A DNA stretch of 64,000 nt from Proteromonas lacertae (lineage: Eukaryota). The notes below the pieces were generated by a model. That model was not told the DNA's origin, searched no databases, and saw nothing but the letters and a program-made list of their open reading frames with translations. A program made the position numbers and the translations under genes. The stretch covers positions 124,001-188,000 of the forward strand of contig NGBS01000004.1 of assembly GCA_002245135.1 (NCBI GenBank). Reading direction: 5' to 3'. This document shows, piece after piece, positions 3,743 through 35,551 of this stretch (the stretch's first letter is position 1; each line of letters begins with the position of its first letter).

Positions 3743-5324
3743 ATGAATAGAAGAGGTGGATTTCAAAGAGGGCGACAAGGTAAAAGAGTTCAAAGGAAAA
3801 TTCAGAACAGTAGCAACAATGAGCCACAGAAAAGAAAAGCTAGACAGACTTTCGCTTCAAATGAGAGTGATAGAGTATAAATATTCAATTTATTCTCTTA
3901 AAGAATAACAAAAAAATATGCAAGTTTTTTTTAGCAGGTAAATGTGATAATCCAAACTGTGCATTCCTACATCAAAGAACACTCACTCAGAAGGGAAGTA
4001 CACAGCAATTTCCTAAAGTATTTACTTTTTAATAATTTATAAAGGTCTTAAAGAAGTCACAAGAACAGAAGACAGTTCATACTGCAGTTACACAAAATTC
4101 AGCCTTAAAATCTTCAAATACACCATCTTCTACATTAAGCCCAATTATAAAACCATCAGAAGCTAATTCTGCTAAAATACTAAACAAAACAGAAGAAATT
4201 CAATTGGAGGAAGAAAATAATCTATCTAATGAAGAGGATATAGATTCCACTGACGAATTGAATGATATATTAAACGATGAAGAGAATACTACAAAGAATA
4301 AAAAAGAAATGATCAAAACATCACCAATTAAAATAAAAGCAACAACAACTCCAAAAACTGATGAAAAAACAGATTCAAAAGAAATAGAAGTAATAGAAGA
4401 AGAAAAAGTTGAAGAAAAAACAAAAAAACCAGAAAAACAACAAGATAAACCTATTATTTCAACAATAACTACAGTAGAGAAAAATACAAATAAAAATGTA
4501 ACAACCACACCTGTGAATAGCACCAAAACAACCACACCCAAACCAAAAATTAATACAATAGTAAAATCACCTATAAAATCAATCAGATCCACTCCAAAAC
4601 CAACCAAAACACCTAAAACTCAAAATTTATTATCATCACCAATAAAACCACTTGTTAAAACATCTGAAAATATCATTTTTTACATTATATGAATTTATAT
4701 ATTATTATTATTATTTCTTTAATTATTATTTTTACTAGCAATTCAAACTGATAGTATCAATGATTCATGGGGTTCTACATTTGGATTATCATTTAGTTAT
4801 GCTGATCCATTAATGACTCTTAATAACAATTCACATATGGTATGGTCATTATCAAATGGAGCTCCAATATTTGGTAGATCACCTGTATTTCATCATCATC
4901 ATCAAAATCATGAAGATAATAACAATAACAATATAAATGATAACAATGATAATGGTAATAGTATTAAACCAACCCAACCAAATGTATATAAGGATATATT
5001 ACCCAGAAGTTCTATTATTATATCTTTTTTAAAAATTACATATACTTATTTGTTCAAAGTTTTCTTAATTTAATTGTTTAATCTCAATGGAAAATATATG
5101 ATTATAACAATTTAGAGGAGATTGAAGTAGAATCAAATAAATCTGATAATAATTCAAAATTAAAAATATCAAAAGTGAAATTAGATGAATGTGTACAGAC
5201 ATGTGATGAGAATAGTTGTGAGTGTATTCTTCATCAATATGAATCACTGCTGTTGAGAGAAAAACAATATAATAAAATAATGAATAAGTATTTATTAGAT
5301 GAACTAAAGGAAGGAATGCAATAA
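3743..5324 (+). CDS. CCCH zinc-finger protein with Arg/Gly-rich N-terminus and Thr/Pro/Lys-rich linker; two predicted U12-type introns
   Basis: MNRRGGFQRGRQGK start and CKFFLAGKCDNPNCAFLH (C-x7-C-x4-C-x3-H). Two GT-AG introns plus AT-initiated introns 4670-4735 and 5020-5081 join the frames to TAA at 5322-5324. Confidence 0.7.
4670..4735 (+). other. Predicted U12-type AT-AC intron (66 nt; an AT-AG end at 4738 is also in frame)
   Basis: 5' end ATATCATTTT, branch-like TTTCTTTAAT at 4714-4723, ends AC about 13 nt later. Restores the frame, whereas the nearest GT (4654) with AG 4738 does not. Confidence 0.65.
5020..5081 (+). other. Predicted U12-type intron with non-canonical AT-AA termini (62 nt)
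   Basis: 5' end ATATCTTTTT, branch-like TTTTCTTAAT at 5060-5069. The downstream open frame begins at 5082 (SQWKIYDY...) directly after AA. Confidence 0.6.
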
Positions 5325-5442
5325 CACCATTTTTGTTTATGTATTATTTTTGTTTTTTAAAATACTATTGAATGACATTTTTTTGTCAAGTCAAGCGTAT
5401 GAAAATCTATTTTGACATTTTTCAAATTTCAAATTTCTTTTT

Positions 5443-7947
5443 ATGAATAGCATCGATATTGGAGATCCAGCAGATCCTATTCCACCTCCAAGCACAGCAA
5501 AATTGAATAAAAGAAGATCTTTTATCAGAAACTTCCTTCCAGATGATTCTTCTGATTCATTTTCTTTTCAAGAGTATATTTAAATATTTATATTTACTAG
5601 TCCTTATACAAATAATGATAGTGAAGTATATTGAGTTGTTTTTATTGCTTATGTAGGATATGAGTATAATAAAAAACCCTTTCAATGAATCTACATCCAA
5701 AAACAATTTTCCTCCTCTTGATCCAATGTTTGAAACATCTGATGAAGAGTCATTAATTGAGAATGAAGAAGATGAAGATGATTTTAATGGAAATAAGAGT
5801 GTTGAATATAGATCAGCAATGAATAATCACAAATTAGATGTATCAATACATTATTCTACTAACAATTAGTCTCCAAACCATTTGAAAAGACAATTTGAGA
5901 ATGTTTTTGACACTCCTTTAAAACTAGATGATAATTATCTATCAGTATATTATTTTTAGTTTATATAAATAATAGAAAGTACCAATAAAAGGCTTAGAAA
6001 CTCCATTACCAAATGCAAAACCTCCATTATATAAAAGACCATTGTTTATATCACCATCATCTAGTGACAAAGTATTAACTCAAATACCAAACCAAGTTGA
6101 ACATATACCATCACGTATATATATATATATAATATTTATATTTTTATATAGCATTGGCAAAATTATCATCATTATTAAGTCCAATTGGTAAGAATAATTC
6201 TGATAATTCAAGGAACAATAACAGCAGTAATAGTAATAATAGTGGATTATCATCAACTATGATTAGCACTCCAGAACAAGGATTAGATATGATTTCACCA
6301 CCAGAAGTAGCAAGGTATATTATATATATATATATGTATAATAAATAGAAACGATAACTTAAAATCACCTTCATTTAGTTCACCAATTTCAAGGCAAAAT
6401 ATGGATAGTAATATGGAAATATCTAACGAATTATCAGCTACAAAAACACCTAAACAACCTCAACAACAACAACAACAAAATGATGAAGAATTGATAATAG
6501 AAGAAGAAATGTCTCCAATATATAAAGTAAATACAACTCCCACACCAAATACCAGCAATAATAGTAATAATAATGAAAAAAGTAATAATAATGAATTTAC
6601 TACACCAAATAATAATAATAATAATAATAATATTCCATTAGGATTAAATACAGAGTTAAACGATATATCTCCAATTACACATGATCAAATAAGTGTATTA
6701 AAAAGTCAAAATATATTACAAAACTCCACCAATTTAGCTAAAACTGCAATACTTTCATCAATCAGTAATAATAATAATATGTCAGTTATACAGAATAGAA
6801 AAAAGCCATTATCCTTCAACGAAAGATTAGAAAGTGTATTGAATGAAGAAAAGAATAAATCTTCCAATAGCATTAGTAATAATAATAATATATCTGATAT
6901 AAAAATTCAACAACAAGAACAAGAACAAGAACAACAAGGACAACAGCAAGAACAAATAAAACAAGAACAACAGCAAGAACAAATAAAACAACGACAACTA
7001 CAGAAAATATATGAATTACAACAACAACAACAAATACTTGTAAATAATTATAATAATCTAATAACTCCACCATCACATTCATCTTATCATTATCAACAAC
7101 AACATCAACAGTATAAATCAATATCAGATCAATCAACTCAAACTGATGATAATATATACACATTCTCCTCCTCATCATCATCATCACTTCATAATAATAA
7201 TGTAAGACATTCACATTCACTTACACCTTCTGATTATTCAAGACATTGTAGTTGTCATAAACATCATCACCATCACCATAATAATCGTCATTATAATAGT
7301 CGAAGTAATAGTAATTACAATAGTGATGATGATAATGATTCAAATATTGATAATGATGATGATTATAGTAATACTCATTCTAGATCAAATCATAGAAATA
7401 ATGAGAATATTTATAATAATAACAACAATATAGAAGAAAGTAATTCAATATCATATGTTAATGAAAATCTAAATACATTTTCAACAACACAATTTCCATA
7501 TCATATTTCAAATTCTCCATTGTATTATAGTAAAATCAATACTATTCCTCCTCTTCAACAACAACAACAACAATCACTCCCTACACCATTATCTCAACAA
7601 ATACCTATGCAAACTCAACCTACTGTTATATTACCATTACCTCCTCAACAGCAGCAACAGCAATATAGTAGTCCAATTGTATTCTCTCCAGGATTTGCAA
7701 CGAATACTTTACCTACTTCCTACTACTTTCAAGCTTCACCAATTCAATTTAAAAATTCTAGTTATAGGTATATTAATATAAAACACAACAATAATTTATA
7801 TGGATCAAATGATATATTATCACCAAATTATTGGGAAAGGTATATCTCTTTTATTATTTAATTATTCATAGAAAACTAGAAAATTCATACGAAAGAACAA
7901 AGAAGATTTATCTAAAACACAATTCATTGAACAATTCATTCCATTAA
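5443..7947 (+). CDS. Large low-complexity (Asn/Gln/His/Ser-rich) hypothetical protein with many S/T-P sites
   Basis: About seven short GT-AG introns link ORFs 5660, 6154 and 6401-7861. The last exon reads YWERKLENSYERTKKIYL to TAA at 7945-7947. No domain recognised. Confidence 0.6.
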
Positions 7948-8237
7948 TAAACAATAGAGTGTTTTAATGTAATATAAATTATTTTCATTAAAAAAGTAAT
8001 AATTTGAACTGATTTGCTTTATTACAGTAATTTTCATAACTCTATAAATAAAAATATCACACACAACTATCAAAAAAAGACTTTCAAAAATGTGGTCACC
8101 CAAAAATAAAATCAGGTTAATGAAAATCGAATGAATATAATTGGTCTAATTAATAATTTTGGGATGAATTAGATATAAATTCTTTCTTCTATTGTCCCAA
8201 TTTTTTTCATTAACCCTTTAGTTTTGGCGCTCTGTTT

Positions 8238-9375
8238 ATGTTAGGAAGAGAAAGAAAAATACGTCGTCACAAAAAAGCTCCTGAAGCTCCAAAGAAAGCT
8301 ATGACAGCTTACATTCTTTTTAGTAAGCATGTGAGAGACCAGATGAAACAAGACCCTGCTGAAGCTAATAAAGTATATATACTTTTTATCTATAACCTTT
8401 TAAATAGCAAGCAACAGAAGTAGTGAAAATTGTCGCTCAAAGGTGGGCTCTTTTAAGCGAGGAAGAAAAAAGACCGTTTATGGAAGCTGCTGAACGTGAT
8501 AAGGAGAGGTATACCTTTTAATTTTTACTTCTTAAAGATATAATCGAGAAATGGCAACTTATGATGGTCCTAGACATGTTCCGATAAAGTCTAGAGGTAA
8601 ACACAGAAAAATAGTAAAGCCTACAGTATTTTATATACATTTTTATTGTTTATAGGATGCTCCAAAGAGAATGACTTGTGCTTTTTTGTTTTTTAGTAGA
8701 GACAAAAGAGGTGAAGTAAAAGAACTCAATCCAGAAATGAAAAATACAGATGTATCAGCAGAATTAGGCAGAATGTGGGCAAATCTAACAGATGAAGAAA
8801 AACAACCTTATATAGAAAGAAGTTTAAAAGACAGACAGCGTTACATGTGTGAGAAGACTAATTATGAGAAATTACACACGCCAATCCCCAATAATAACAA
8901 TATAATGAATAATAATAACAACAATCCATCAAACCAATCAAATAATCCATCATCCTCTTCTCCTTCTAACTCTTCTAATATTGTGGTTGATGATACTGAC
9001 CATACATCATTTAGTCCAGCTATAAATGATCAAGGAATGATTCCTATTAATATATCGATGAATATGAATATCAATAATATGAATAACATGTCTTCTATTG
9101 GTAGTCCGATGAATAATCAGATTAATCAAGTTAGTATATATTTATTTATTATTTTATATATAGCACAATCAATGAATGGAATGAATTCTCAATATAACAG
9201 TTCAATGAATAATTCTAATACTGCTATTAGTTATTTGAATTCTTCAATTCCTAGTCAGATGAATATTGGAGGACCTAATTCAATGAGTTCTTTGTCAAAT
9301 ATGAATTCTATGAATTTAATGAATAATGGTATGAATAATGGACAAAATAACAATAATATCGGATATATGTTTTAA
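8238..9375 (+). CDS. Tandem HMG-box protein with Asn/Met/Ser-rich tail
   Basis: APKKAMTAYILFS...RWALLSEEEKRPF and DAPKRMTCAFLFFS...LGRMWANLTDEEKQPY. Four short introns. Confidence 0.9.
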
Positions 9376-9499
9376 TAATTTATTTATGTTTTACTTTTTG
9401 ATTGTTATCTTGTTTTTATTTGTAAATACACATAATACAGTCTATGTAATACAGAATAGCTGTACTAAATACGTTTGATCATTTCATTTAATTTTTGAG

Positions 9500-12400
9500 A
9501 TGTATAGAGCTTCTATTTTGTTGTTATTCTGCTCAATGCTCATGTATGCTATGAGTGTATGTCCTAATAACTGCAGTGGGCATGGAAGATGTGGTAGTAA
9601 TGGTAAATGCATTTGCTACAAGCAAGCAGTCGAAGATTCAACAAGTGTAGATGCACTTCCATTGGAATATGGTGGAAATGATTGTTCAGTTTGTATTTTA
9701 TTGTTATTATATGTTTATAGTAATGTGTCCATTGGGAATACCATTTGGGATTCAACGTGAAGCAAAAGAGTATGTGTATTTAACTAAAGGGAAAAGTGGT
9801 GGATCAAAGGAAAGGATTCTAAATAGTGAAATTAATCATAAAACTGTTAAGATAGAAGAAAAGAATGATGTAAAGCAAAATGATACTGTTGGTGTAATAG
9901 GTGAGGAGCATATAGCTGAAGCCTATTTATCAAATTTTAATTCAATTATCAATAAGAATACTGATCCTCATAATACAACATGTGTCAATTGTAATAATTC
10001 TCAAAAACAAGCTGAATTAAAACAAGTTATCAATAGAAACAATTCCAATTATATAGAAAATAAAAGAAATCTTAATGAGATGAATCAAGACAATTTTTCA
10101 TTGAATAGAGTGAGAAAATTAGATATGACTCAGATAACAGTTGATGGTAAGATTGGATATAAGTTTACTAATAGTGATACTAGCATATTTGATCAATTGA
10201 AATGTAATACTGATGTTATTAGTTGTGAAAAACAATGTAGTATTGATAGTGAGACAGATAAAAGAAAAGTTACTATTTTAGGATATGATGATAGTGTTAC
10301 ATTTATTACTATTGATCCTGACTTAAGCAGTGGTTCAGCAATTACTACTATTACATGTGATTCTAGTTACACAAATGAAAAGAAAGATTTTACAAATTAT
10401 AAAGATTTAATAGTAAATGATTTATCAAGTAAGAAGATTATTTTAAAAGGATTTGGTGAAATATTTGAATCAATAACAAGTAAATCAAGTAATGATGATA
10501 TAAAGATAGAATGTCATCATCCTACAAAGAATGTAGAGAATTTGTTATATGAATATCCAGGAAAGATCGAATCTGTTGCAGATAGTGTAAGTAATCAAAA
10601 AGATTTAGTAATCACATTTACAAGTGATATTACAAGTCATTTATCAGTGGATGATTTATGTTATTTGATGTTAGATAAATCTGGTGAAGTAATCAATTTA
10701 GGTGTTCCTGTTGTATCTGATAGTTGTGGTAGTTCTGAATTATGTGTAACAACAAGTATTTGTGATAAATGTGAAAATTTCAAATATATAATAGATCGAA
10801 AACAATGGTTTTATGAAACAGCGACAATGTTATGTGAAGTTGATGATAGTGAAGCTGATGCAAGTGATACTACAAAGAAGATTTATAAGATCTCACTTGA
10901 AGCCTCATTAAGTCGATTAATAATAAATCATTATATCTCCACAAGTAAAAGTGGAGTATCAAAAGGTGAATTAGAAATACCAAAAGGATGTAGTGATGGT
11001 AATAAAGATACAGGATTATTTGGAATATTGCGAAAGAGTGGTTCAATAAAAATCGAAATATTTGGTTATGGTAGTGATGATTTTAATGATAAAGATGAAC
11101 ATATGATATGGTCTGTAATAGAAAAAGATGGAAGAAAATATGTGACATTACGAGAAGAGTACAATTTCAATCCAATAAAATATCGAATGTTAGAAATAGC
11201 AAATGATGCAAATAAATTGAAAATGCGAATAATCATTAGTCCAGCTCCATTAATCTCCACAATTTCCAGTGATAATGGTTTAGTGATATACAAAGTTCCT
11301 CATGATTATAAGTTCGAATTGAATAATGTGATAGGTGGAACGATAGAATTTTCAAGTAAAGGTAATGATGATACTAAAGATAACATAGTGAATGAGAAAA
11401 GTAGTAATTTCTGGGGATATGATAGTGGTAAGAGAATTAGTTATATGAGTTATGATGATAAAAGTGTGAGTGATATATGTGTTGATGCATATGAAAATGT
11501 TGATGGTTTAATAAAAGTTAAAGAAGCATGTGATGGTTTATATCCATTAGATTTTGATTATAAAATGAATGAAAATGATAAACCTGATATATCAGAAATA
11601 AAGAAAGATTTTACAAATTATAAAGATTTAATAGTAAATGATTTATCAAGTAAGAAGATTATTTTAAAAGGATTTGGTGAAATATTTGAATCAATAACAA
11701 GTAAATCAAGTAAAGATAATATAAAGATAGAATGTCATCATCCTACAAAGAATGTAGAGAATTTGTTATATGAATATCCAGGAAAGATCGAATCTGTTGC
11801 AGATAGTGTAAGTAATCAAAAAGATTTAGTAATCACATTTACAAGTGATATTACAAGTCATTTATCAGTGGATGATTTATGTTATTTGATGTTAGATAAA
11901 TCTGGTGAAGTAATCAATTTAGGTGTTCCTGTTGTATCTGATAGTTGTGGTAGTTCTGAATTATGTGTAACAACAAGTATTTGTGATAAATGTGAAAATT
12001 TCAAATATATAATAGATCGAAAACAATGGTTTTATGAAACAGCGACAATGTTATGTGAAGTTGATGATAGTGAAGCTGATGCAAGTGATACTACAAAGAA
12101 GATTTATAAGATCTCACTTGAAGCCTCATTAAGTCGATTAATAATAAATCATTATATCTCCACAAGTAAAAGTGGAGTATCAAAAGGTGAATTAGAAATA
12201 CCAAAAGGATGTAGTGATGGTAATAAAGATACAGGATTATTTGGAATATTGCGAAAGAGTGGTTCAATAAAAATCGAAATATTTGGTTATGGTAGTGATG
12301 ATTTTAATGATAAAGATGAACATATGATATGGTCTGTAATAGAAAAAGATGGAAGAAAATATGTGACATTACGAGAAGAGTACAATTTCAATCCAATAAA

Positions 12401-15400
12401 ATATCGAATGTTAGAAATAGCAAATGATGCAAATAAATTGAAAATGCGAATAATTATTAGTCCAGCTCCATTAATCTCCACAATTTCCAGTGATAATGGT
12501 TTAGTGATATACAAAGTTCCTCATGATTATAAGTTCGAATTGAATAATGTGATAGGTGGAACGATAGAATTTTCAAGTAAAGGTAATGATGATACTAAAG
12601 ATAACATAGTGAATGAGAAAAGTAGTAATTTCTGGGGATATGATAGTGGTAAGAGAATTAGTTATATGAGTTATGATGATAAAAGTGTGAGTGATATATG
12701 TGTTGATGCATATGAAAATGTTGATGGTTTAATAAAAGTTAAAGAAGCATGTGATGGTTTATATCCATTAGATTTTGATTATAAAATGAATGAAAATGAT
12801 AAACCTGATATATCAGAAATAAAGAAAGATTTTACAAATTATAAAGATTTAATAGTAAATGATTTATCAAGTAAGAAGATTATTTTAAAAGGATTTGGTG
12901 AAATATTTGAATCAATAACAAGTAAATCAAGTAAAGATAATATAAAGATAGAATGTCATCATCCTACAAAGAATGTAGAGAATTTGTTATATGAATATCC
13001 AGGAAAGATCGAATCTGTTGCAGATAGTGTAAGTAATCAAAAAGATTTAGTAATCACATTTACAAGTGATATTACAAGTCATTTATCAGTGGATGATTTA
13101 TGTTATTTGATGTTAGATAAATCTGGTGAAGTAATCAATTTAGGTGTTCCTGTTGTATCTGATAGTTGTGGTAGTTCTGAATTATGTGTAACAACAAGTA
13201 TTTGTGATAAATGTGAAAATTTCAAATATATAATAGATCGAAAACAATGGTTTTATGAAACAGCGACAATGTTATGTGAAGTTGATGATAGTGAAGCTGA
13301 TGCAAGTGATACTACAAAGAAGATTTATAAGATCTCACTTGAAGCCTCATTAAGTCGATTAATAATAAATCATTATATCTCCACAAGTAAAAGTGGAGTA
13401 TCAAAAGGTGAATTAGAAATACCAAAAGGATGTAGTGATGGTAATAAAGATACAGGATTATTTGGAATATTGCGAAAGAGTGGTTCAATAAAAATCGAAA
13501 TATTTGGTTATGGTAGTGATGATTTTAATGATAAAGATGAACATATGATATGGTCTGTAATAGAAAAAGATGGAAGAAAATATGTGACATTACGAGAAGA
13601 GTACAATTTCAATCCAATAAAATATCGAATGTTAGAAATAGCAAATGATGCAAATAAATTGAAAATGCGAATAATCATTAGTCCAGCTCCATTAATCTCC
13701 ACAATTTCCAGTGATAATGGTTTAGTGATATACAAAGTTCCTCATGATTATAAGTTCGAATTGAATAATGTGATAGGTGGAACGATAGAATTTTCAGTAG
13801 TAAAGGTAATGATGATACTAAAGATAACATAGTGAATGAGAAAAGTAGTAATTTCTGGGGATATGATAGTGGTAAGAGAATTAGTTATATGAGTTATGAT
13901 GATAAAAGTGTGAGTGATATATGTGTTGATGCATATGAAAATGTTGATGGTTTAATAAAAGTTAAAGAAGCATGTGATGGTTTATATCCATTAGATTTTG
14001 ATTATAAAATGAATGAAAATGATAAACCTGATATATCAGAAATAAAGAAAGATTTTACAAATTATAAAGATTTAATAGTAAATGATTTATCAAGTAAGAA
14101 GATTATTTTAAAAGGATTTGGTGAAATATTTGAATCAATAACAAGTAAATCAAGTAAAGATAATATAAAGATAGAATGTCATCATCCTACAAAGAATGTA
14201 GAGAATTTGTTATATGAATATCCAGGAAAGATCGAATCTGTTGCAGATAGTGTAAGTAATCAAAAAGATTTAGTAATCACATTTACAAGTGATATTACAA
14301 GTCATTTATCAGTGGATGATTTATGTTATTTGATGTTAGATAAATCTGGTGAAGTAATCAATTTAGGTGTTCCTGTTGTATCTGATAGTTGTGGTAGTTC
14401 TGAATTATGTGTAACAACAAGTATTTGTGATAAATGTGAAAATTTCAAATATATAATAGATCGAAAACAATGGTTTTATGAAACAGCGACAATGTTATGT
14501 GAAGTTGATGATAGTGAAGCTGATGCAAGTGATACTACAAAGAAGATTTATAAGATCTCACTTGAAGCCTCATTAAGTCGATTAATAATAAATCATTATA
14601 TCTCCACAAGTAAAAGTGGAGTATCAAAAGGTGAATTAGAAATACCAAAAGGATGTAGTGATGGTAATAAAGATACAGGATTATTTGGAATATTGCGAAA
14701 GAGTGGTTCAATAAAAATCGAAATATTTGGTTATGGTAGTGATGATTTTAATGATAAAGATGAACATATGATATGGTCTGTAATAGAAAAAGATGGAAGA
14801 AAATATGTGACATTACGAGAAGAGTACAATTTCAATCCAATAAAATATCGAATGTTAGAAATAGCAAATGATGCAAATAAATTGAAAATGCGAATAATCA
14901 TTAGTCCAGCTCCATTAATCTCCACAATTTCCAGTGATAATGGTTTAGTGATATACAAAGTTCCTCATGATTATAAGTTCGAATTGAATAATGTGATAGG
15001 TGGAACGTATAATATTTCAGTAGTAAAGGTAATGATGATACTAAAGATAACATAGTGAATGAGAAAAGTAGTAATTTCTGGGGATATGATAGTGGTAAGA
15101 GAATTAGTTATATGAGTTATGATGATAAAAGTGTGAGTGATATATGTGTTGATGCATATGAAAATGTTGATGGTTTAATAAAAGTTAAAGAAGCATGTGA
15201 TGGTTTATATCCATTAGATTTTGATTATAAAATGAATGAAAATGATAAACCTGATATATCAGAAATAAAGAAAGATTTTACAAATTATAAAGATTTAATA
15301 GTAAATGATTTATCAAGTAAGAAGATTATTTTAAAAGGATTTGGTGAAATATTTGAATCAATAACAAGTAAATCAAGTAAAGATAATATAAAGATAGAAT

Positions 15401-18400
15401 GTCATCATCCTACAAAGAATGTAGAGAATTTGTTATATGAATATCCAGGAAAGATCGAATCTGTTGCAGATAGTGTAAGTAATCAAAAAGATTTAGTAAT
15501 CACATTTACAAGTGATATTACAAGTCATTTATCAGTGGATGATTTATGTTATTTGATGTTAGATAAATCTGGTGAAGTAATCAATTTAGGTGTTCCTGTT
15601 GTATCTGATAGTTGTGGTAGTTCTGAATTATGTGTAACAACAAGTATTTGTGATAAATGTGAAAATTTCAAATATATAATAGATCGAAAACAATGGTTTT
15701 ATGAAACAGCGACAATGTTATGTGAAGTTGATGATAGTGAAGCTGATGCAAGTGATACTACAAAGAAGATTTATAAGATCTCACTTGAAGCCTCATTAAG
15801 TCGATTAATAATAAATCATTATATCTCCACAAGTAAAAGTGGAGTATCAAAAGGTGAATTAGAAATACCAAAAGGATGTAGTGATGGTAATAAAGATACA
15901 GGATTATTTGGAATATTGCGAAAGAGTGGTTCAATAAAAATCGAAATATTTGGTTATGGTAGTGATGATTTTAATGATAAAGATGAACATATGATATGGT
16001 CTGTAATAGAAAAAGATGGAAGAAAATATGTGACATTACGAGAAGAGTACAATTTCAATCCAATAAAATATCGAATGTTAGAAATAGCAAATGATGCAAA
16101 TAAATTGAAAATGCGAATAATCATTAGTCCAGCTCCATTAATCTCCACAATTTCCAGTGATAATGGTTTAGTGATATACAAAGTTCCTCATGATTATAAG
16201 TTCGAATTGAATAATGTGATAGGTGGCAGTATAATATTCAGTAGTAAAGGTAATGATGATACTAAAGATAACATAGTGAATGAGAAAAGTAGTAATTTCT
16301 GGGGATATGATAGTGGTAAGAGAATTAGTTATATGAGTTATGATGATAAAAGTGTGAGTGATATATGTGTTGATGCATATGAAAATGTTGATGGTTTAAT
16401 AAAAGTTAAAGAAGCATGTGATGGTTTATATCCATTAGATTTTGATTATAAAATGAATGAAAATGATAAACCTGATATATCAGAAATAAAGAAAGATTTT
16501 ACAAATTATAAAGATTTAATAGTAAATGATTTATCAAGTAAGAAGATTATTTTAAAAGGATTTGGTGAAATATTTGAATCAATAACAAGTAAATCAAGTA
16601 AAGATAATATAAAGATAGAATGTCATCATCCTACAAAGAATGTAGAGAATTTGTTATATGAATATCCAGGAAAGATCGAATCTGTTGCAGATAGTGTAAG
16701 TAATCAAAAAGATTTAGTAATCACATTTACAAGTGATATTACAAGTCATTTATCAGTGGATGATTTATGTTATTTGATGTTAGATAAATCTGGTGAAGTA
16801 ATCAATTTAGGTGTTCCTGTTGTATCTGATAGTTGTGGTAGTTCTGAATTATGTGTAACAACAAGTATTTGTGATAAATGTGAAAATTTCAAATATATAA
16901 TAGATCGAAAACAATGGTTTTATGAAACAGCGACAATGTTATGTGAAGTTGATGATAGTGAAGCTGATGCAAGTGATACTACAAAGAAGATTTATAAGAT
17001 CTCACTTGAAGCCTCATTAAGTCGATTAATAATAAATCATTATATCTCCACAAGTAAAAGTGGAGTATCAAAAGGTGAATTAGAAATACCAAAAGGATGT
17101 AGTGATGGTAATAAAGATACAGGATTATTTGGAATATTGCGAAAGAGTGGTTCAATAAAAATCGAAATATTTGGTTATGGTAGTGATGATTTTAATGATA
17201 AAGATGAACATATGATATGGTCTGTAATAGAAAAAGATGGAAGAAAATATGTGACATTACGAGAAGAGTACAATTTCAATCCAATAAAATATCGAATGTT
17301 AGAAATAGCAAATGATGCAAATAAATTGAAAATGCGAATAATCATTAGTCCAGCTCCATTAATCTCCACAATTTCCAGTGATAATGGTTTAGTGATATAC
17401 AAAGTTCCTCATGATTATAAGTTCGAATTGAATAATGTGATAGGTGGCAGTATAATATTCAGTAGTAAAGGTAATGATGATACTAAAGATAACATAGTGA
17501 ATGAGAAAAGTAGTAATTTCTGGGGATATGATAGTGGTAAGAGAATTAGTTATATGAGTTATGATGATAAAAGTGTGAGTGATATATGTGTTGATGCATA
17601 TGAAAATGTTGATGGTTTAATAAAAGTTAAAGAAGCATGTGATGGTTTATATCCATTAGATTTTGATTATAAAATGAATGAAAATGATAAACCTGATATA
17701 TCAGAAATAAAGAAAGATTTTACAAATTATAAAGATTTAATAGTAAATGATTTATCAAGTAAGAAGATTATTTTAAAAGGATTTGGTGAAATTGTTAGAG
17801 CAAATGGATGGAAATATGATTCAACTGTTACTTTAAGTATTGAATGTTACCATAATGATACAGACAATTATTTTAGTAACATTACTGAATATGATGCTGA
17901 AGTTACTGCATCTAAAGAAGGTTTTGTAATTACTATTACAGATACAGTTCCAGTATCATTAAAGAAAAATGATATTTGTCATTTAATGGCTGATAGAGAA
18001 GGTAATTCATATTCATTACAAAAAGTCAATCCTGTTGTTGTAGTCGATAAAGATAAAGAAAAATATGAATGTGATATATGTAAAGAATTATTTTATGATT
18101 CTATAAGAGTTAAGTTCTATGTTAAAGAGATATACTTTAACAGAGTAGAAGGAATAACAGTGGATGATAAAAATAGATATGAAAATTATACATCTGTTTT
18201 AGGAATAAGTATTATAGAGAATGTGATTGATGATTATGTTGAAAATGCTCAATATCCATTACTAAAACCAACAAATGGTGGATTTCAGACTTATAATGGT
18301 TATGTATTAAAGAATAATATATTAGTTGTCAATTTAAGTATACCCTTAGAAGCAGATAATACAATTGATATTCCAGTTTATTATGAAGTGGCAAAGATTA

Positions 18401-20953
18401 ATGATGTTATAACACCTACTAATTATGAAAACTTTACATTAGATATTTATCCTCCTTTAGTTCAATTAAAATCAAAATATGAAGAGAATAAAGGGAATGA
18501 TTATTTAAAATTAACTCATACTGTGCTTGAAAATTCAGTATGTGATAAAAACACATTAATATGCAGACATATATTATTGGATTTGAATTTACCAAAAGAA
18601 GGTGGATATGTAAGAGTATTAAATGATAAAAATGATGTTGTTGTTGTAGGTAATGTTCTTTCGTACAGATCTAATTATCCTCAAGTTGCTATTATAAAAT
18701 ATGACAAAGATATTTGGTTTGATGAGAGATTTGATTGTTTTAGTTATACATATCAAGTAATTTCACAAAGAAATGATCTATCAATGTATGAATCATCAAT
18801 AGTTGAGAATAATAAAATAGTGTGGAAGGATACTGGTTCTGCAATAGATTTGATGGGATTAAATGGAAAAGAAGTGAAAATAATTTGCGTTTCAACATCT
18901 TCTAATAAAACTACTACACATAAAGTAACAATCTCAACTATTGGGAATGACACAGAATTTAGTTTTAATGGAGATAATAATAAGCCTGAAAATAAGGCAA
19001 CTTGCAATGTATTAGCAAATAGTGAAAAAGATATAGAAGTAGAAAGAACAATCAGAATCTGCTCCATTATTCACTGTAGACGAAAATGGAGAGAATGTAT
19101 TTAAAGAAGTAAAAAAGGATGATTTAGAATATGATGTATTAATCAAACAATTGAATAACATTGACACTAATAGTGATAATGAAAAAGAAAGTGTTGCAGT
19201 TCCAGTTATAACAGGTGGTGAAACATATTACAACAAAATAGTTCAATATTATAATGAAATTGATAATGAAGAATCAGAAGGAAAAGAAGATGAAGTTATT
19301 ACAAAGAATTTTGCTATTCCAATTGTAACTGAAAGGAAAGATGTTATAATGAATGATGCTGTAGAAGATAGTGTATTAACAGTTGAAATTATAGAAGGTA
19401 GAAAAAGCTTGTTTAAGAGTGTTGTGGTGATAACTGAAGTTGTTGGAAATGAAGGTGGATTTATACTTGTCAAAACTAACCCAGAAATTGATTATCTAGA
19501 AATAACAAGAAATAGAAATTTAAAAGGTGGTGAAGAAAGTAAAAGAATAATTATCACTATTACTCCATCAGTTCCAAAACCAGAGGGAAAAGATAAAAAT
19601 ACAGATATTGAGTCTGGTGAAGGATTGTTTAATGTAATTGGAGGTAAAATGTATTGTACTAGTTTAAATTCAAGTAATAAAGGAATTGTTAATGTTATAT
19701 ATTATAAGGGAGAAGAAGTTATTTCTCTATATGATTTTGATACAAATGAAAAAGACAAACAAGAGAAGTTGGAATGTAGTGTGATTAGTAAGAGAAATGA
19801 TTTATCACTTTATAGTGAATCAGTTGTTGAAAAAGATAATAAAATTACTTGGAAGTATTATGCTGAAGCTGTGAAATTGTTAATTGAGACTAAAAATATA
19901 TTGAATAATGAAAGATTTCCTTTTATTTGTTATAATCCTAAAGGTAATTACAAATTAAACCAATATTATAGTGTAGTAGAGGATATAAAATCAGCAAATG
20001 ATATAACATTTAAGATTCGAGATGTAAGTGATGATATGACTGGATTTGTGTGTTATTGTAATGCAAAGATAGATGGTGACAATATTAAAGAAATAACTGA
20101 TTGGGGTATAATGGATGCTTCCAAATACTTTGAAGAGAAAGATGATGAATGGTATTTTAAAATAGTAACTGAAGCAGGATCAGAAGGATTTGTAACAGAA
20201 AATGGACCAGAAATATTATTAGGAAGTGAATCAACAGATAACTTTATTAGCAGATATGAAACTAGTAAAGAATTATTAATACAACTATCTAATGATCAAG
20301 CAGGTGCATTATTTAAGTTATATGCTGTTCCAGGATCTTATATACAAATTGAAATATCTGGTGAAGAGTTGAAATTAAGTCAAATTGCAAGTAGTATCTA
20401 TGATAAAGAAAGCAACACTATAACAATTAGAACAATGCTTGATTTAAAATTAAATTTCCCAAAAGGAAGAATGAGAAGAAATCTTGACAATAGTAATTCA
20501 ATAATAAGAATCACAATAAGAAATGATATGGAAAATACTCATTCACCTGTTGAATGTAGTGGACAAGGTATATGTGACAGAGAGACAGGAAAATGTAATT
20601 GTTTTGATGGATTTAGTGGATATACATGTCAAAGAGCTTTTTGTATGAATAATTGTAATGGTAATGGAAGATGTGTTCCATTGAAGGAGTTATTATCAAA
20701 TGATGATTTAATAAAATATGAAGGATTTGGTAATGATGAGAATGTGTATGGTTGTAAGTGTGATAAAGGAAGAAGAGGACCAGATTGTAGTTTGATTGAA
20801 TGTCCATCAGGTATTGATCCATTGAAAGCAGAAGGAGATGAAGAAAAGAGAGATTGTAGTGGAAGAGGTGTATGTGATTATACCACAGGAATTTGTGATT
20901 GTTTTGATGGATTTACTGGTGAAGGATGTCAAATTAGAAGAGAGTTTAGTTAA
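9500..20953 (+). CDS. Giant secreted EGF-repeat protein of the stramenopile mastigoneme (Sig1/Ocm1/Mas) type with a ~3,600-aa insertion; three apparent frameshifts
   Basis: Signal peptide, then CPNNCSGHGRCG...DCSVLMCPLG (intron 9693-9720). C-terminus reads HSPVECSGQGICDRETGKCNCFDGFSG...GCKCDKGRRGPDCSLIECPSGIDPL...DCSGRGVCDYTTGICDCFDGFTG. Frames break near 13797, 15010 and 19044. Confidence 0.75.
10380..17791 (+). repeat. Coding tandem repeat, 1,221-bp (407-aa) unit, six full copies plus a ~80-bp partial copy
   Basis: AAGAAAGATTTTACAAATTAT recurs at 10380, 11601, 12822, 14045, 15268, 16489 and 17710. Copies are almost identical, and copies 3 and 4 are 1,223 bp. Confidence 0.98.
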
Positions 20954-24221: not shown

Positions 24222-24263
24222 ACAAAACAATTTGTAAATCAACATTTATTTTTTAAATCTCTT

Positions 24264-24271: not shown

Positions 24272-24362
24272 TTGTTTTATATATCAAAAAACAAAAACAA
24301 TATTATTAATCATAAATAAAAGAAGAAAAGTATTTTACATTTCTAAATATATAACACAAAAT

Positions 24363-25920
24363 CTATTTATGATTTCTTTTTGATTCACCACTTTTCACTT
24401 TCTTTAAATACTGTTGTAATACTCTCAACCTTTCTTCAACATTACTTTCATCATCACTATCATCAATATAATTCTGTTTCATCTTTTGCACATGAACTTC
24501 ACCATCACTTAAATCTATATCACTCTTCATTCTATCATCATTATTATTACTTTTCTTTCTATTCCTTCTACTTACAGTTTCATCAATTATTCTATCATTA
24601 TTATTATCATCATCTGAGGAAGATAAATAACCTGTTGTTGGTTTATTCTTCATATAAATCACTTTCTTAGGTGATAAATGTTTAGATATTGATGGACTTC
24701 TGGATACTGATCTTTTAGAAGCTTTTGATGAAGAAACTGAAGTTGTTTTCTTTCGATTATTGGAGGGAGATGGTGATAAATGACGATTTTTATTGTTCAC
24801 CACTTTTTTATCTATATATTTAATATAATAATAATAATTATTCTTATTATACGTGTAGGTGTGTTAGATCTTGATGATATTGGAGTAACACTTCGACTGC
24901 TATTACTTTTATTTCTTATTCTATTAGTTGGAGTAGGACTTCTGGAAGTTACTCTTTTCTTCATTGTTGTTGATGATGATGATGTAGTTGATTTATTATG
25001 ATATTTATTATTTGGAGTTATAGATCTTGTTTTAGATACACTATTATTGGATGATTGACTTGTAATTGATGTTCTTCTTTTTTGTTCATTATTCATTGAT
25101 TTTGAGGGAGTTTTCTTCCTTATTATTGTTTTTGATTTAGTTTTATCGGGTAATTTTATTGATTTTAAATATTCTATTTCTTTTTTCAATTCTTCATTCT
25201 CTCTTAAAGCTGTAATGAGTTTTTCAGAATTTATTTTCTTTTCTTCTTTGATTTTAGCTATTAATTCTCTCATTTTACTTCTTTCTGATTGTATTTCACT
25301 CTCTAATCGTCTTATTTGCATTTGATATTGATGGATTTCATGAAATGGATAGTCATTTGGTCCAATTTCTGCTTTATATTCACTTAATTCTGCTCTAAGT
25401 CTATTAATTGTCCTTTGCAGCATTTCTATTGTAGGATTAATAACGAAGTATAATGGAAGTGGATAATGAACCATATCGAATTCTACACTATATGTCACTA
25501 TTAAATATCGTTTATTATCTGATTGAGATGTTGTTATTGAGTTATATAAATTTCTATGCCTATTTCTGAGCGTTTCTAGATCTGATGGCGTTAAAAGATC
25601 AACAAACACAGATCCACTCTTGCTAGTTAACGCTGATAATAACATTTTTACAAATGTTGAGAATCTTTTATAATTTCCTGTTTTACGAGTGATGTTTTCC
25701 AAAGCTATTCAAAAATAAATGTAAAATAAGATACCATCACCTGTAAATACTCCTCCCCATCTTTTTTCTCCATCGCTAGTTTCACAGTCAATACACAACT
25801 TGTTATCTTCATCAACTGAAACTTCAATACAATATGATATTCTAAGAATATAAATACTTAATAATACCCATGAAATATCATTTGAAATGATTTTTCGAAT
25901 GGTTCAATAACTGCAGTCAT
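24363..25920 (-). CDS. CCDC61: CCDC61/VFL3 basal-body protein (SAS-6-like head, coiled coil, basic tail)
   Basis: LENITRKTGNYKRFSTFVKML, VFVDLLTPSDLETLR and KRYLIVTYSVEFDMVHYPLPL are the CCDC61 signature blocks. Three short introns. Confidence 0.92.
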
Positions 25921-25987
25921 GTGAAAATTTGATTTTAAAATCAAATTTAAAAATATAGCTTGAGTGTAGCTTGATATTCTTCAGAAA

Positions 25988-28642: not shown

Positions 28643-28824
28643 TTCATATTATTATTATGACTTATATTTTTTCTAAATGTGTTTTGCTACCTAGTCATAC
28701 TACTTATTAACTTATCTTTTATTGCTCTAAGAAATATTGTTACCTTATTTTCTTCAGTATGTTATGTTTCTTTTATAGCATCTAATAAATAAGCGATTAC
28801 TATACGTTTTTTTAAAACCATCCT

Positions 28825-30149
28825 ATGAGTTTAAAGAATCTTCTAGACAAGAAAGATGTATAAGCAATTCTGTTCTTATTATCTCAATAGCCATTTGAAC
28901 TAAATGAAACGTCTATTGATCTAGCATGTTTTTGTTATCGTATTTAATTTGTATTAATACAATAGTATCAAATAAAAATGTCAAAAAAATACTTGACTAT
29001 TACGAATACTGCAGTTCATCGTATATTACACACTAATTGTAACATATAGTAATGGATTGAACGAAGATAAGCTGTTGCACTATTTACATCTAGATAAAAT
29101 GGAACTTATATCAGAGATCGTAACAGTTTTACGTATAGACAACGATTGTAATTTGTAGATATTTATAATAAACCAGAAGATGAATCAATTACTTCCTCCA
29201 AGATAGTATTATCGAAAGATGACTATTTTCAATTTATTGTAATTTTTGGCATATTACCACTTAATTTAACCATAATCTGTATAATATTGATATATAATTA
29301 TTATAGTTGTACTATCTATTGTTGGTGCACAAAGCTTTACACATATAAGTGAACCTACATTTGCGAAGATACTATCTTTAATAAATTGTGAAGCTGATAA
29401 AGGAGGAAGTGCACTTCAGACGATAAGTTTGAAATACAAAATGTTAGCTAAGTATTGTATTCCATTTTTATCATATACATAGACAAGATATTTATTATTT
29501 GGAATTTAATGATTTTTATAACATTATATTTGAGAATAAATGGTTTTCCGAACTTTACAAAATAACAAATAGTATAAGAATAATAGCATTATCACAACAG
29601 ATCTATGAATCTATTCACTATAGAATGACTAATATAACGAATATATTACAATATAAAATGGAACACAATGGAAAATCACCTCCTTTATCTTGTAATGATC
29701 ATTTACTAATACTGTTAGGAGTAATGGATAATCCATATAAATATAATTATTGTGATAGTAGTGTAGATAAAAATAGAATAACAGAAATAGCAAAACAAAT
29801 GAAGAGGAAATTAATGACACAACAGAGAAGTTTTATTCAAGTAGTTTGGACTCCTCATTTAATGAAATTAAAGAAACAAGGAAGTAGTCATACTATGGTA
29901 TCAATGCCTGGTATTAATAAATCACTACGAGTTTCTAATCTATCTGTTTCTGAAGATGATTGTTATTCATCTAAAAATATTAATAGTTATGGTCCTTTTG
30001 CTTGTAAAAATAAGGTTTGTCCTATTATTGATCCAAATAGAAATAGTTGTAGTAGATTCCCTAATAAAAGGTCTTGTCCTGTTGAATCTTCTAGAAGGAT
30101 CAATTGTATTTCAGAAGAATCTCCTCCTTTACCTAATCAAAGTACGTAA
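28825..30149 (+). CDS. Hypothetical protein, possibly degenerate EF-hand/calcineurin-B-like N-terminus
   Basis: Six short GT-AG introns give one continuous frame from ATG 28825 into ORF 29499-30149. The fold guess is weak. Confidence 0.55.
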
Positions 30150-30370
30150 TAATAATAAATGATACTTATATCTCATTTATATATATTATTTATATGAAAA
30201 TGCATAGATGTATATTTTAATTATTAGTGTCATTTATTATATTAAAGAGTTGTAATGTTTTTGTATGTTAATAAATTATTAGTATAATATTATGTATTTT
30301 TATTTAAATTATTGTTTTTAATTATTAATATGTTGGTAAAAATATTTGGAAATGAAATTCTATGTTTAAT

Positions 30371-33300
30371 TTATACAAAGTATTTATTAAATGCTTCTTC
30401 AAAAGCATTTGTTTCTTCTTTTGTATTGAAGATTATTGTGAATCTACTACCTTTTTTCGGTATTACTTCAACTGTAAAACTTAATCTCTTCATTTTTGAT
30501 TCAACTAATGATATATTCACATATTTTTCACCACAGAAACCAGGTTGAAAGTAAGCTATTGATGTATCAGTACAGAATAATATTCTAGCTTTTGAAGAAT
30601 TATTTTTATCCATTATCCTTGCAGTAAATCCATCAGTGTTAAAAACATTAAACAATGGAATTGAATTCTATTAAAGATATACATATAGATATACAATTAC
30701 AGATTGTGGTAATCTTGCTTCTACAGATACTGCTGAATTTTGCTTTGATTCTTTTTGTTTCTCTTCTTCCAGTTGCTTTTTAAGAAGTGTTTCTTTTTCT
30801 AAATCATTTTTAAGTATTTCATATTTCTCATGTAATTCACATAATTCTTTTTCCATTTCTTTAATTTTCTTGTTCTTCTCTGCCAAGTCAATTTCATATT
30901 TTTTACTATTACTATCATTTTCAGCTATGGGTGGTGGTGGTGGAGTTGCAACATTGCCTATTTTGTTATACTTATTTTCTTTATTATTTAGCTTTTCATT
31001 CAATTCATCAATTTTGGATTGAGCATCTATCAATTCTGCTTTTAATTTTATTACAGCTGTGTCAGTATTCGTTATTTTCCTGCTAAACAATTTTTCATCT
31101 TGACCCATTAACTTTAACTTTTTATTCATTTCCATATTCTCACCTAAACAACAATACAATTGTTTTCTTAATAATTCTATCTCCTCATTTTCTTCTTTTG
31201 TATTACCATTTGTTTTAATTGCTACTTTTTCTAACTTACTATTACTAAAATACAGAAATGATTGACGATATAATATATCAGCATCTAATCTTAATAATCT
31301 ACTATTAATTACAGGGTATTGTTCTTTAATCATTTCACCATTTACTGGTTTATTAGTATAAATATCAATTGATATTGGTCCTTCAAATGGATCAAATGTT
31401 GATGGAACAAAGAAATATTTACCTTTTGGAATAATAGCTACTTCAGAGATTAATGGTAGTTCTGTCCAAAAATAACATCCATTTATTTTAAAAATTGATT
31501 TTGGATATTGCTTCAGTTGTTCTTTTGGTGATTTTCTCTTCTTTTCATTTTTATATAAATCAACATTTACACATACTTTTTCTGTTGGATTAAAAACCAT
31601 TACTAATTCAGTATTATCTTCTTCAAATGTAATTGGTATTCTATAAAAGATAATTAATTAATGTTTAATACATTGGATTATCATCATAATGATGATGATT
31701 GTTACATCCTGCTGCTGTTCCATCACTTTTTGACCATTTTCCATCATAATGATAATGCAAATAACCTTCTCCTAATTCTGGACATCTTTTCACAGTTAAT
31801 TTATCTGGAGATTGAATAGTGAAAGTGAAAGGACCATGTGTTGTTTGTTTATATACTAAACATTCTGCTATATAATTACCAGGAGTTAAATTACTTTGAA
31901 TAATTTTGGATGAAAATGAAAAACAACTTGGTGATTCAATTACTGAACATTTATTATCCTGATAATCAAAATATCTTCCATCACTTCTATATAATAGCAG
32001 CATTACTTGATCATCACAAGTTGTGTTTAAATACAAATAAAGTGGAGTTGTTTTTGTAACAGTAATTAGATATTGTGGAGAAACAGTATGATGATTATAT
32101 CCTTTATTATTTGCTTCTGTCCATTCATCATGAATATCAAGATTAAACCAATCTGTGATTTGAGTAATGGTGAATAATGAAGATCCGCGAAATACTATAC
32201 TCATTGAAGAAGTACTATAATTTCTATTATCACAATAAAAACAAAAATAATACTCTGCAAATGATGGAACTAAAGTGTATTTACTTTTTTTTAATGTCAC
32301 TGATGATGTAGTATTGCTTTTACCTAATATTCTTCCAGATATCATTCTCTCTCCAATACTGAATAAATGATCTCCATTACTCTCATATAATTGAAATTCA
32401 GATATACCATCTACAGTTTCGCAACTACAAACTAAATCACATGATTCTTCTAAAATATCAATACACCATTGATCATTTGATGGTTTATCATGACTATTTT
32501 ATTCATAATCAAAACAATTTATACTATTCAATATTTCCAAATGTATTTCTTATTCTTTTTCCATCTTTTAATAAAATTAGAGATTGTCTTGTTAAATCTA
32601 CCTTATCATATGATATTGGTTTTGTTGACCACATTGAAAATGAATAAGATTTCATTACTTTCTTATGAATAGTAAAATAAAGATTAAGGATTATAATAGA
32701 AATAAATAATCCAAAAAGATATCAATGTAAAACAAGTGAATATTGTCCTGGTTGTAGATTAGCACAATATGAATAGATGGAATGAACACTGGCAATATTT
32801 TCACATTGAGTTTCAGATAAAACACTATTTCCTTTTGAATCAAATACATAGATGAAATATGAAAATGAATCATTTGATTTTAGAAGCAATCTGGTTGTTT
32901 CTTTCACTGTTAATTTGTATTGAGGTAATTGAGTATAAAATCCTTGAATCAAATATTCTCCTCCATCTTTTACTACTCCTTTGATATTATATTCAATGAA
33001 TTTCTCCTCACATTTTGTTGATGATATTTCAAGTGATATTGGAGATTCTAATCTTACATCGATTTTACATGGTTTGTTATTGTTTATTAAATATGGAACA
33101 AATCTATATTCTCCTTTTTCTACATCAATTTCACAAACATTTTCATTGAATTGAGCAGCCATTTGAGAAACTGTTTTACTATCACTATCACAATATATTC
33201 TATTTTCTCCTTTAAATAATGAACCACCAACTCTTTCATTTTCACATTTCAAATAAATGAACAACTTTGTATTTTGTGGAATTACTATTTTCAATTGAGG

Positions 33301-35551
33301 TAACATATAGAATAATTGTTCCATTGGATTATAATCTGTAATCCAATCGAAACTTACTTTAGAATTATATGTAAATCTTTCCATCGCTAAAGGTCCATGA
33401 GATATCTTCATATTCTTTGAGAATATCTATAATATAATATATAAAACAATAAAATATACTCTAATTGTCATTGGAACTGGATATATATTATTATCTTTTA
33501 AATACGACACAATTACAAACTTTGATGGTTTATCAATGATTTGCCTATTTCCCCATACTTTCATCATATAATAAGTTCGATTCTATTACACCATTAGTAA
33601 TAATATGTTAATATACCATTGATGAAGGTTCATCCATTAGTCTTTTACAATTTTCACCTGTAACATCTAAGAAGTATATTCTATTAAGGAGAAAATTTAA
33701 AAATCATTTATAGAAAGATATATCATTAAAAACATAGATATTTGAATCACTTTCATCTTTACTATGCCTTTCAAACTCAAAGTATACTTCTCCTACTCCT
33801 TTTGTTGGAGTTACTTCAAATGTATATTGATGTCTGAAATATACTTGTCTTGGAACTAGTCCTGGTAATAAAATGTGATGACTTCCATTAAATGGGTATA
33901 TTTCTTCATGATATGCTATATTTCTATTGAAATTATAATATTTAGAAAAATACATTCCATTACATTCAGGTAATACATCTTTCAACAAAAACCAAGAAGC
34001 ATTTACACTACAAAAACAATCTGCTGATTCTCGATTATATCCAATATACTATAACAATAATTCAATTATATAATATCAATACTTTTTGATGTTTTTCATC
34101 CCATATATTATTATCAATATACCAAGGTCCTTTAATGCCATGAGCATTCCCAACTAGAATCCATTTCTCTTTGTTATATTCTCGATACTAATAAAAGAAT
34201 AGAATGAATATGATAACATACAGCTAAAATAGCATATGCATGATGATGAACAATTGGTAATTTTCCTTGATCACAGACTGAAAGTGTTGATATTATATGT
34301 CCATTACTATATAAAGTGTATAATTCATTCCATATTTTATCTAAATTATTCAACAATTCTTTTGAACTATATGATCTAGTAGCACAACCAGTAAAACAGG
34401 ATAATTCACAACTGAAATAAGAACCTGTATAAAACACTTTCATTATTGCTTTTTCTAATAAACTAACCCACAATTCAGTCTGCAATAATGATTGAGCTAT
34501 AATAACACCAGAACACTCTTTACTTGTCAATTGATAATCATCGACTAGTACACTTCTAAAACATCCATTGATATATATTTTAATAACATACTTACCATAA
34601 GGATTGTAAATTGGCCAACCATCTTTGTTTTGAGGATATATCATATTCTTCAAATAGGTTGTTCCATATAATGCCATATGATTAGTGATTGCCATTACTG
34701 GTGCAATATTAGAACAATCTCCCATTTCCATTTGTTTTACTGATGGTGATAAAAAGTCTCTTACTACTTCAGGAATAACATCATAAAACTCATTTGGTCT
34801 TCTCCATACACCTTTTCCTACTAAGTCTTTTATTTTGTTATAATCAAAATCATCTCTGAAATATTCTTCATCTGTATCAAATCTTGTATTATATAATTCA
34901 TACTCACTAAATGGATTAACTGCAACTTCACCAATTCTTGAAGAATCTTTCAATATTTTGGTTTGTTCATTTTCTTCATCAGGTTTGAAAATAAAGTTAT
35001 CTTCTTTTGGATAAGATTTTAACAACTGGTCAATATCATTTAAATACTTCTTTTTATCTTCTTTTTCTTTTGATGACAATTTTTCTGAAGATTTAAATAA
35101 TGCTTTGGCATTATCTAACAGTCTTCTTGCTTCCGTATTTTTACCAACAGATCTTAAAGTTTGAGCGTATTCTAAACAGAATTTACCCTTCAGATAGTTT
35201 ATTGGAGTAGCGAATGTTTTAATCGAAGACATTGGGTAACGATACTAAATTTAGACCATTTAAAATACCTGATTAAATTGTTCATTCGCTTTATCATCAA
35301 TTAACTGTATCATCTTTAATATTTCTGAAATGCGCTTAATATTTCTTTCATAGCTATAGATCAATATAAATATGAGTTTACTTTGAGATTTTAGGAGAGG
35401 AAGTCAAAACATAATAACCATATAAAGCCTGGAAGTATAAACTTCTGGCATATAACCACAACTTCTCATTTTCTTTCTCTTTACCCTAAAGAATCCTTTA
35501 ATAGATCAGAAATACTTTTTTAATAAGCTGTTCTACATCCTGTATTTTCAT
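30371..35551 (-). CDS. Calpain-7/PalB-like cysteine protease: MIT-like N-terminus, CysPc, multiple domain-III repeats, coiled coil, PH-like C-terminus
   Basis: KQMEMGDCS (Cys), HHHAYAIL (His), LVGNAHG (Asn), YNPYGKYVIKIYINGCFRSVLVDD and ELWVSLLEKA. Repeated PQY...GxYxxVP units. About 13 introns, including two AT-AC. Confidence 0.85.
32672..32722 (-). other. U12-type AT-AC intron (51 nt) in the calpain gene
   Basis: Minus strand reads ATATCTTTTTGG...ATCCTTAATCTTTATTTTAC. Removal turns the apparent TGA stop into TGT and gives YSLVLHCIHKKVMKSYSFSMWS in frame. Confidence 0.88.
33674..33721 (-). other. U12-type AT-AC intron (48 nt) in the calpain gene
   Basis: Minus strand reads ATATCTTTCT...TTTTCTCCTTAATAGAATATAC. 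Removal gives YVFND|FLDVTGENCKRL in frame, whereas using the internal AG leads to a stop. Confidence 0.88.

Follow-up and report, generated by a model that had tools for sequence, protein, structure and literature searches.

Are introns removed by the minor spliceosome present, and unusually common, in the 64,000-nt stretch of DNA presented above (hereafter the window)? The question is raised by four introns that start with AT, at 4670, 5020, 32722 and 33721, two of them in host gene 1 and two in a calpain gene, host gene 2. The original prediction described four U12-like introns among about 80, and their coordinates, strands and lengths all held in the present analysis, in which 78-84 introns were counted. 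We conclude that the four introns are real and, by their donor and branch-site signals, of the U12 type, and we infer from the sequence that they are spliced. The explanation that we favor, and consider on balance probable, is that these AT introns are removed by the minor spliceosome in a flagellated relative of Blastocystis, whose minor introns would be short, rich in AT-AC ends and about 1-3% of all introns.

Four AT-starting introns in two genes

The minor spliceosome uses U11 and U6atac at the donor and U12 at the branch site, and its acceptor is set by distance. The gene model of this study allowed GT-AG introns and, in addition, gaps with any ends; no U12 motif was built into it. In the 11 regions modelled, 77 GT-AG introns were called. 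Three doubtful ones at one gene end were removed, leaving 74 with a median length of 31 nt (range 24-63 nt, one longer than 45 nt). Further GT-AG introns lie outside the modelled regions or were left uncalled there (e.g. 93-118 and 9693-9720), so that about 78-84 introns served as the denominator for the U12 share. The motif-blind model demanded five gaps other than GT-AG introns, and four of the five are the introns in question. The fifth, at about 62500 in a dynein gene, was rejected as an intron; it is a frameshift.

Each of the four introns interrupts an open frame. If it is left in place, an in-frame stop lies within it or is created by it, and its removal re-establishes the reading frame; in host gene 1 this restoration was judged by coding potential only. 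Retention of any of them would truncate the protein, and retention of the intron at 32722 gives an immediate TGA stop. As originally described, the four introns (48-66 nt) are longer than the GT-AG introns (P=0.0005). Their stretches contain 8-17% GC.

Compared with the U12 donor consensus [G/A]TATCCTT, as printed in bioRxiv 10.1101/2020.10.12.336362, all four introns start with ATATC and show 1, 1, 2 and 1 mismatches to ATATCCTTT. Compared with the branch consensus TTCCTT[A/G]AC, each intron contains a site with two mismatches to TTCCTTAAC, 10-13 nt before its end (Table 1). Such a U12-like branch site was found in 4/4 AT introns and in 0/74 GT-AG introns (Fisher P=7e-7). The 3' end is TAC in three introns and TAA in one. 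No GT-AG minor intron was found in the window; C at +5 occurs in two of the 74 called, both of which lack the branch motif. The major donors are nearly all GTAT(A/T)T, unlike the usual GTRAG. In a training set of 65 GT-AG introns, chosen to start with GTA, position +4 was T in 93% and +5 was G in 4%.

Motif counts alone prove nothing in this DNA. When a symmetric rule on the textbook consensus was applied, donor and branch motifs together were not above shuffles of the whole AT-rich window (5 against 2.8 expected; 16 against 13.0 under a looser rule), and motif counting was therefore rejected as evidence. It is the position of the motifs that exceeds chance. On shuffling each of the four gaps, the full signal appeared in 31, 17, 5 and 25 of 3000 trials (0.2-1.0%). 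A scan of 211 sense-strand RTATC sites gave no fifth candidate, save an out-of-frame upstream donor at 33741.

The two introns of host gene 1 differ in how well their ends are defined. No GT-AG alternative that keeps the frame was found within 60 nt of the intron at 4670. This intron has tandem TAC-TAG ends at 4733-4738 (+), both in frame, 13 and 16 nt past the branch site; an alternative AC/AG acceptor, with an AT-AG end at 4738, is possible. The 3' end of the intron at 5020 was placed from the frame and the branch spacing, and AT-AA, its likely pair of ends, is given in PMC10639083 as the commonest non-canonical minor-intron end. This intron is the least certain of the four because long GT-AG alternatives exist, although these measure 107-170 nt or would use an atypical donor site.

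The two calpain introns can be compared with relatives. P0141, a relative with 31% identity, aligns without gaps over both calpain junctions of the spliced model. Against P0141, the U12 cuts score better than every GT-AG cut within 30 nt (60 vs 36-37 and 79 vs 68), and 48 nt is the best-scoring length to remove at 33721. A profile search with the exon preceding 32722 gave six proteins, five of which are relatives. In the P0139 cluster (82% identity), the proteins of 11 of 12 members end at the histidine where the window meets its stop at 32722, as expected where an exon-final TG runs into the A of an AT-starting intron. The donor at 32722 appears to be conserved in this relative, and the interior does not; among the four introns, conservation in relatives was found for this one only, as read from protein ends. 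In the twelfth member, P0155, the stop-Y-L-F of the window is replaced by W-Y-L-F, after which the two sequences diverge. This protein, from one 1-kb contig, implies G for A at intron +1 of the site equivalent to 32722. It may reflect a G-start allele, that is, an AT-to-GT subtype switch segregating in the species, or a contig error.

The gapless alignment through both calpain junctions argues against an explanation in which the four gaps are not minor introns, and gene ends, assembly errors or AT-AC ends used by the major spliceosome account for them. The recurrence of the stop at 32722 in the 82% relative, the lack of the branch motif in the major introns, and gaps that are GC-poor, stop-containing and bounded by the full signal point in the same direction. 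That explanation, which we regard as very improbable, draws on frameshifts that seem to exist elsewhere in the assembly, on the abundance of the motifs in AT-rich DNA, on the resemblance of the major donors to the minor donor, and on the score of a calpain region split into three genes without U12 introns, which is only about 4 log units worse.

Table 1. Positions of the host genes, the four U12-type introns and their branch sites in the window
Feature	Position	Strand	Description
Host gene 1	3743..5324	+	predicted 463 aa; 2 GT-AG and 2 U12 introns
U12-type intron 4670	4670..4735	+	66 nt, AT-AC, phase 1, donor ATATCATTT
Branch site of intron 4670	4715..4723	+	TTCTTTAAT; last A 13 nt before AC end
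U12-type intron 5020	5020..5081	+	62 nt, likely AT-AA, phase 0, donor ATATCTTTT
Branch site of intron 5020	5061..5069	+	TTTCTTAAT; 13 nt before inferred end
Host gene 2	30371..35551	-	calpain-7/PalB-like protease, ~1570 aa; 12 GT-AG and 2 U12 introns
U12-type intron 33721	33674..33721	-	48 nt, AT-AC, phase 0, donor ATATCTTTC; first C2-like domain of calpain
Branch site of intron 33721	33683..33691	-	CTCCTTAAT; 10 nt before end
U12-type intron 32722	32672..32722	-	51 nt, AT-AC, phase 2, donor ATATCTTTT; third C2-like repeat of calpain
Branch site of intron 32722	32683..32691	-	ATCCTTAAT; 12 nt before end

The location of the introns in poorly conserved or lineage-expanded protein regions, as originally proposed, was supported by the host proteins. 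The protein of host gene 1 has an N-terminal CCCH zinc finger (Pfam E ~8e-5), a low-complexity middle and an unrecognised C-terminus, and the exons flanking its introns gave no relatives by word search, by Pfam or by ESM Atlas, the last being a weak test. Host gene 2 encodes a Peptidase_C2 domain, its best named matches include calpain-7-like proteins at 30-32% identity, and about six C2-like (domain III) repeats were recognized with the calpain-7 profile, which itself has two. By sequence, its product is to be classed as a calpain-7/PalB-like protease and not as a classical calpain such as rat Capn2. Relatives of this gene (82%, ~50-67%, 34% and 31% identity) occur only as fragments in public-run assemblies; among metagenome contigs, no close calpain loci with DNA were found.

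Host lineage and abundance of the introns

An outer-arm dynein is encoded in the window, which is gene-dense and has about 27% GC and tiny introns. Among named sequences, the dynein is most similar to stramenopile proteins (52-60% identity), and the 120 matches listed include none that is closer. In a quick unrooted tree of 40 sequences, built without an outgroup and without Blastocystis, the dynein forms a long branch that falls in neither the named oomycete nor the named ochrophyte groups. The host is likely to be a flagellated stramenopile, and its 30-nt introns and AT-AC pattern make kinship with Blastocystis likely. A ciliate origin, suggested by the tiny introns, was rejected: no named ciliate is among the dynein matches listed, and ciliates are reported to lack minor small nuclear RNAs (snRNAs). 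Exact look-up of 10 open reading frames (ORFs) of the window in a protein collection matched 0/10.

For Blastocystis ST1, 346 U12-type introns in 319 genes are reported among 35,412 introns, together with all four minor snRNAs and 30-nt major introns (PMC5608401, Gentekaki 2017). Another pipeline gave 253 U12 introns, 77% of them AT-AC, with a median of 39 nt and 49% in phase 0 (PMC10639083). The window resembles Blastocystis ST1 in its major introns of about 30 nt and in its short, mostly AT-AC minor introns, which are often in phase 0 (2/4). It differs in that its host has an outer-arm dynein and 27% GC, whereas Blastocystis is reported to have lost its flagellar genes. (Background on this loss, on ciliate snRNAs and on the rarity of minor-intron gain comes jointly from PMC10690189, PMC2831892 and PMC13685798.) The minor introns are longer here than the Blastocystis median, and snRNAs have been demonstrated in Blastocystis, whereas the U12 assignment here comes from intron signals. 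That all four introns start with AT was originally presented as unusual. This stands in comparison with animals and plants, but the 77% of AT-AC ends reported for Blastocystis makes it an already known pattern there.

The U12 AT-AC and AT-AA introns of animals and plants share with those of the window the RTATC donor, the CTTAA branch core and a short distance from branch site to acceptor. The U12 introns of animals and plants are, in contrast, fewer than 0.5% of introns, mostly GT-AG and ancient, and the introns of the window differ in donor position +6 (T or A) and in the final T of the branch site. We found no paper on minor introns in flagellated relatives of Blastocystis; supplements were searched by terms only, and one 2023 Current Biology paper may mention them. 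The window thus contains U12-type introns in a lineage for which no prior report was found, and the pattern closest to theirs is that of Blastocystis.

In this one selected window the U12 share is 4/78, or 5.1% (95% interval 1.4-12.6%; 1.3-12.6% for 4/78-84), against 0.7-1.0% genome-wide in Blastocystis ST1. The probability of at least 4/78 is 0.007 if the ST1 rate applies and 0.0002 for the human rate, against 0.07 for a rate of 2% and 0.21 for one of 3%. Among 100 windows, the chance that one reaches four is 55% under the ST1 rate, and at the gene level 2 of about 18 genes with U12 introns fits the ST1 rate (P=0.22). One selected window cannot show a genome-wide excess. The very high density of the original prediction therefore holds as a local count and was not established for the genome, the interval starting from 1.4%. 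The rate probably exceeds that of animals and plants, and the 5% in the window is likely to be the upper tail of a moderately raised rate; a density above 3% seems rather unlikely. The clustering originally noted is correct as a description, the introns lying in two pairs, but is not significant, since random placement of four introns confines them to no more than 2 of 15 genes in 6.3% of cases.

For Physarum polycephalum, 20,899 minor introns (11.9%, computed) are reported. Those with perfect donors start mostly with GT, the branch site is changed to TTTGA, and inverted repeats at the ends suggest a transposon (bioRxiv 10.1101/2020.10.12.336362). The introns of the window share with these a relaxed +6 donor, non-canonical ends, a branch site near the 3' end and enrichment in newer genes. 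They differ in that all four start with AT and in that expansion is unproven here.

It is possible, though in our view unlikely, that the window belongs to a second large expansion of minor introns after that of Physarum, with 3-10% of introns of the U12 type, mostly AT-starting and still being gained or spread. The point estimate lies in this range, and a rate of 5% gives 4/80 with 27 times the likelihood of a rate of 1% (0.200 vs 0.0074), although the count comes from four introns in two genes of a window picked for the trait, in which another 13 genes with introns contain no U12 intron. Each of the two host genes carries two such introns, whereas at most 8.5% of the ST1 minor-intron genes do so. 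The relaxed donors (+6 T/A) recall the '+6T' class described for Physarum. The branch site is, on the other hand, near-canonical and not transformed as in Physarum, and a recent transposon family has left no sign: inverted ends were not found, and when the four interiors were compared in six pairs, their similarity did not exceed that of shuffled sequences. A transposon origin was rejected on these grounds. Expansion of minor introns in the lineage is plausible.

Origin of the calpain intron positions

The original prediction suggested de novo gain and pointed to a comparison of intron positions with orthologues. We fetched 80 calpain-7 loci and made spliced alignments for the 40 whose match ran past the catalytic domain; among the 77 introns called in them, none starts with AT. 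No intron was found within about 5 residues of the equivalent of 33721 in the 34 covering loci (22 with other introns), or of 32722 in the 24 covering loci (12 with other introns). Both calpain sites are therefore empty in the covering loci, under a weak position mapping (21 and 10 bits) in which some intron calls are spurious, some loci may be transcripts, and loci were used without assignment to taxa; for host gene 1 there was no orthologue to align. P0141 is seemingly one genomic exon whose bounding introns are common to the window. It lacks both U12 introns and three GT-AG introns of the window, five adjacent introns in all, and gain in the line of the window or concerted loss in that of P0141 would both fit. 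Other clusters of relatives end where the window has no intron, and their GT-AG positions, read from ORF ends, differ too. This suggests a fast turnover of introns in the clade.

A further relative bears on the position at 32722. In the P0143 cluster (34% identity), similarity to the protein breaks off in all 15 members listed (of 19) at residue nine of the conserved repeat-2 strand, where they read Y-L, and their tails are in two frames. A single DNA solution reconciles two of the three tail variants of one frame with the other frame, and 0/500 shuffled tails could be fitted in this way. The solution has the donor TATCTTTT, the branch site TTCTTTAAT and a TRR end 14 nt later. On this protein evidence the P0143 cluster appears to carry a U12-type intron in repeat 2. 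Its codon and phase match those of 32722, but its repeat is the next one upstream (equivalent to about 33090 of the window), where the window has none. This would suggest one origin, followed by repeat duplication with losses or by copying between repeats, over independent random gains.

De novo gain agrees with the absence of the positions from the calpain-7 loci and P0141, which also suits a large expansion, as does the putative P0143 intron, a third and different U12-like intron among the five known ORF clusters of one calpain. Simple recent gain is weakened for 32722, because the 82% relative shares this intron and because a counterpart appears to exist in P0143, in repeat 2. That the introns were gained within the lineage is plausible.

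The shared codon and phase in window repeat 3 and P0143 repeat 2 would also fit an intron older than the repeat expansion. The four could then be ordinary ancient minor introns, at most 1% of introns, inherited from the stramenopile ancestor, with the window as a chance peak and old calpain positions multiplied by repeat duplication. Concerted loss of the five adjacent introns in P0141 would suit this history. In Capn2 the minor intron probably lies beyond domain III. Minor-intron gain is reported to be very rare (PMC10639083), and intron 14 of rat Capn2 is reported as a minor intron (PMC8767276). We nevertheless consider such an ancient origin improbable: neither position has an intron in the covering calpain-7 loci, no AT-starting intron was called in the 40 loci, and the repeat-2 intron is missing from the window and from three other clusters, so that inheritance needs several losses.

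Other features of the window were noted. Frame breaks without intron-like sequence occur at 13780, 15010 and 19010-19040 in a long repeat gene and at 62500 in the dynein gene, and they look like assembly indels. This repeat gene, at 9542-20953 (+), is very long, nearly intron-free and apparently repetitive, with teneurin-like EGF domains at its end, and its product is probably a surface protein. An open frame of 3672 aa lies at 42754-53798 (-); it encodes several periplasmic-binding-protein domains together with a 7tm_3 domain, which is class C GPCR-like.

A proposed minor-spliceosome model and its weight

We propose that the donor ATATC(T/A)TT would be recognized through base pairing by U11 and then by U6atac, and the (T/C)CTTAAT-type branch site by U12. 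The position of the 3' end would follow from its distance of 10-13 nt past the branch site, and hence AC or AA could be used. The long donor, the spacer and the long branch site would together require more room than a major intron of about 31 nt offers, which may explain why the minor introns measure 48-66 nt. The calpain positions would have arisen inside the lineage, after its split from canonical calpain-7, and their later history would comprise inheritance, loss or copying from one C2-like repeat to another, within a clade of fast intron turnover.

Several points weigh against this explanation. C at +6 is found in none of the four donors, and C at the end in none of the four branch sites; the departures are shared, +6 being T in three donors (T or A overall) and the branch site ending in T in all four. 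The T at +6 and the final T could be tolerated as G-U wobble, a proposal that uses the sequences of the minor snRNAs. Against P0141, 15/873 and 40/607 stop-free cuts outscore the U12 cut, and at 32722 a length of 57 nt edges that of 51 nt; homology leaves the exact ends unpinned, and these therefore rest on the motifs. Host gene 1 offers no homologue against which its introns can be tested. The tie to Blastocystis consists of resemblance and of the quick dynein tree described above. Given P=0.007 for the ST1 rate, a rate of about 1% needs the selection of the window, and the maximum of the likelihood is near 5%. An Rfam search for snRNAs gave no match in the window, a result that is uninformative on the rest of the genome.

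The gain of minor introns is an open question for which Physarum is the one large known case. Larue and Roy 2023 suggest that the minor introns of Blastocystis may be recent and call for more species of the clade (PMC10639083). A stronger proposal, to which we give limited credence, is that a flagellated stramenopile clade, with several species in public runs, has at least 3% AT-starting minor introns, the highest share outside Physarum, and is still gaining them, including by copying between repeats, with an AT-to-GT switch perhaps segregating. If this were true, the flagellated relative and its congeners (82%, ~50%, 34% and 31% identity) would form a comparison set with which the question could be tested. 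With a share of only about 1%, the introns of the window would be a simple extension of the known Blastocystis pattern.

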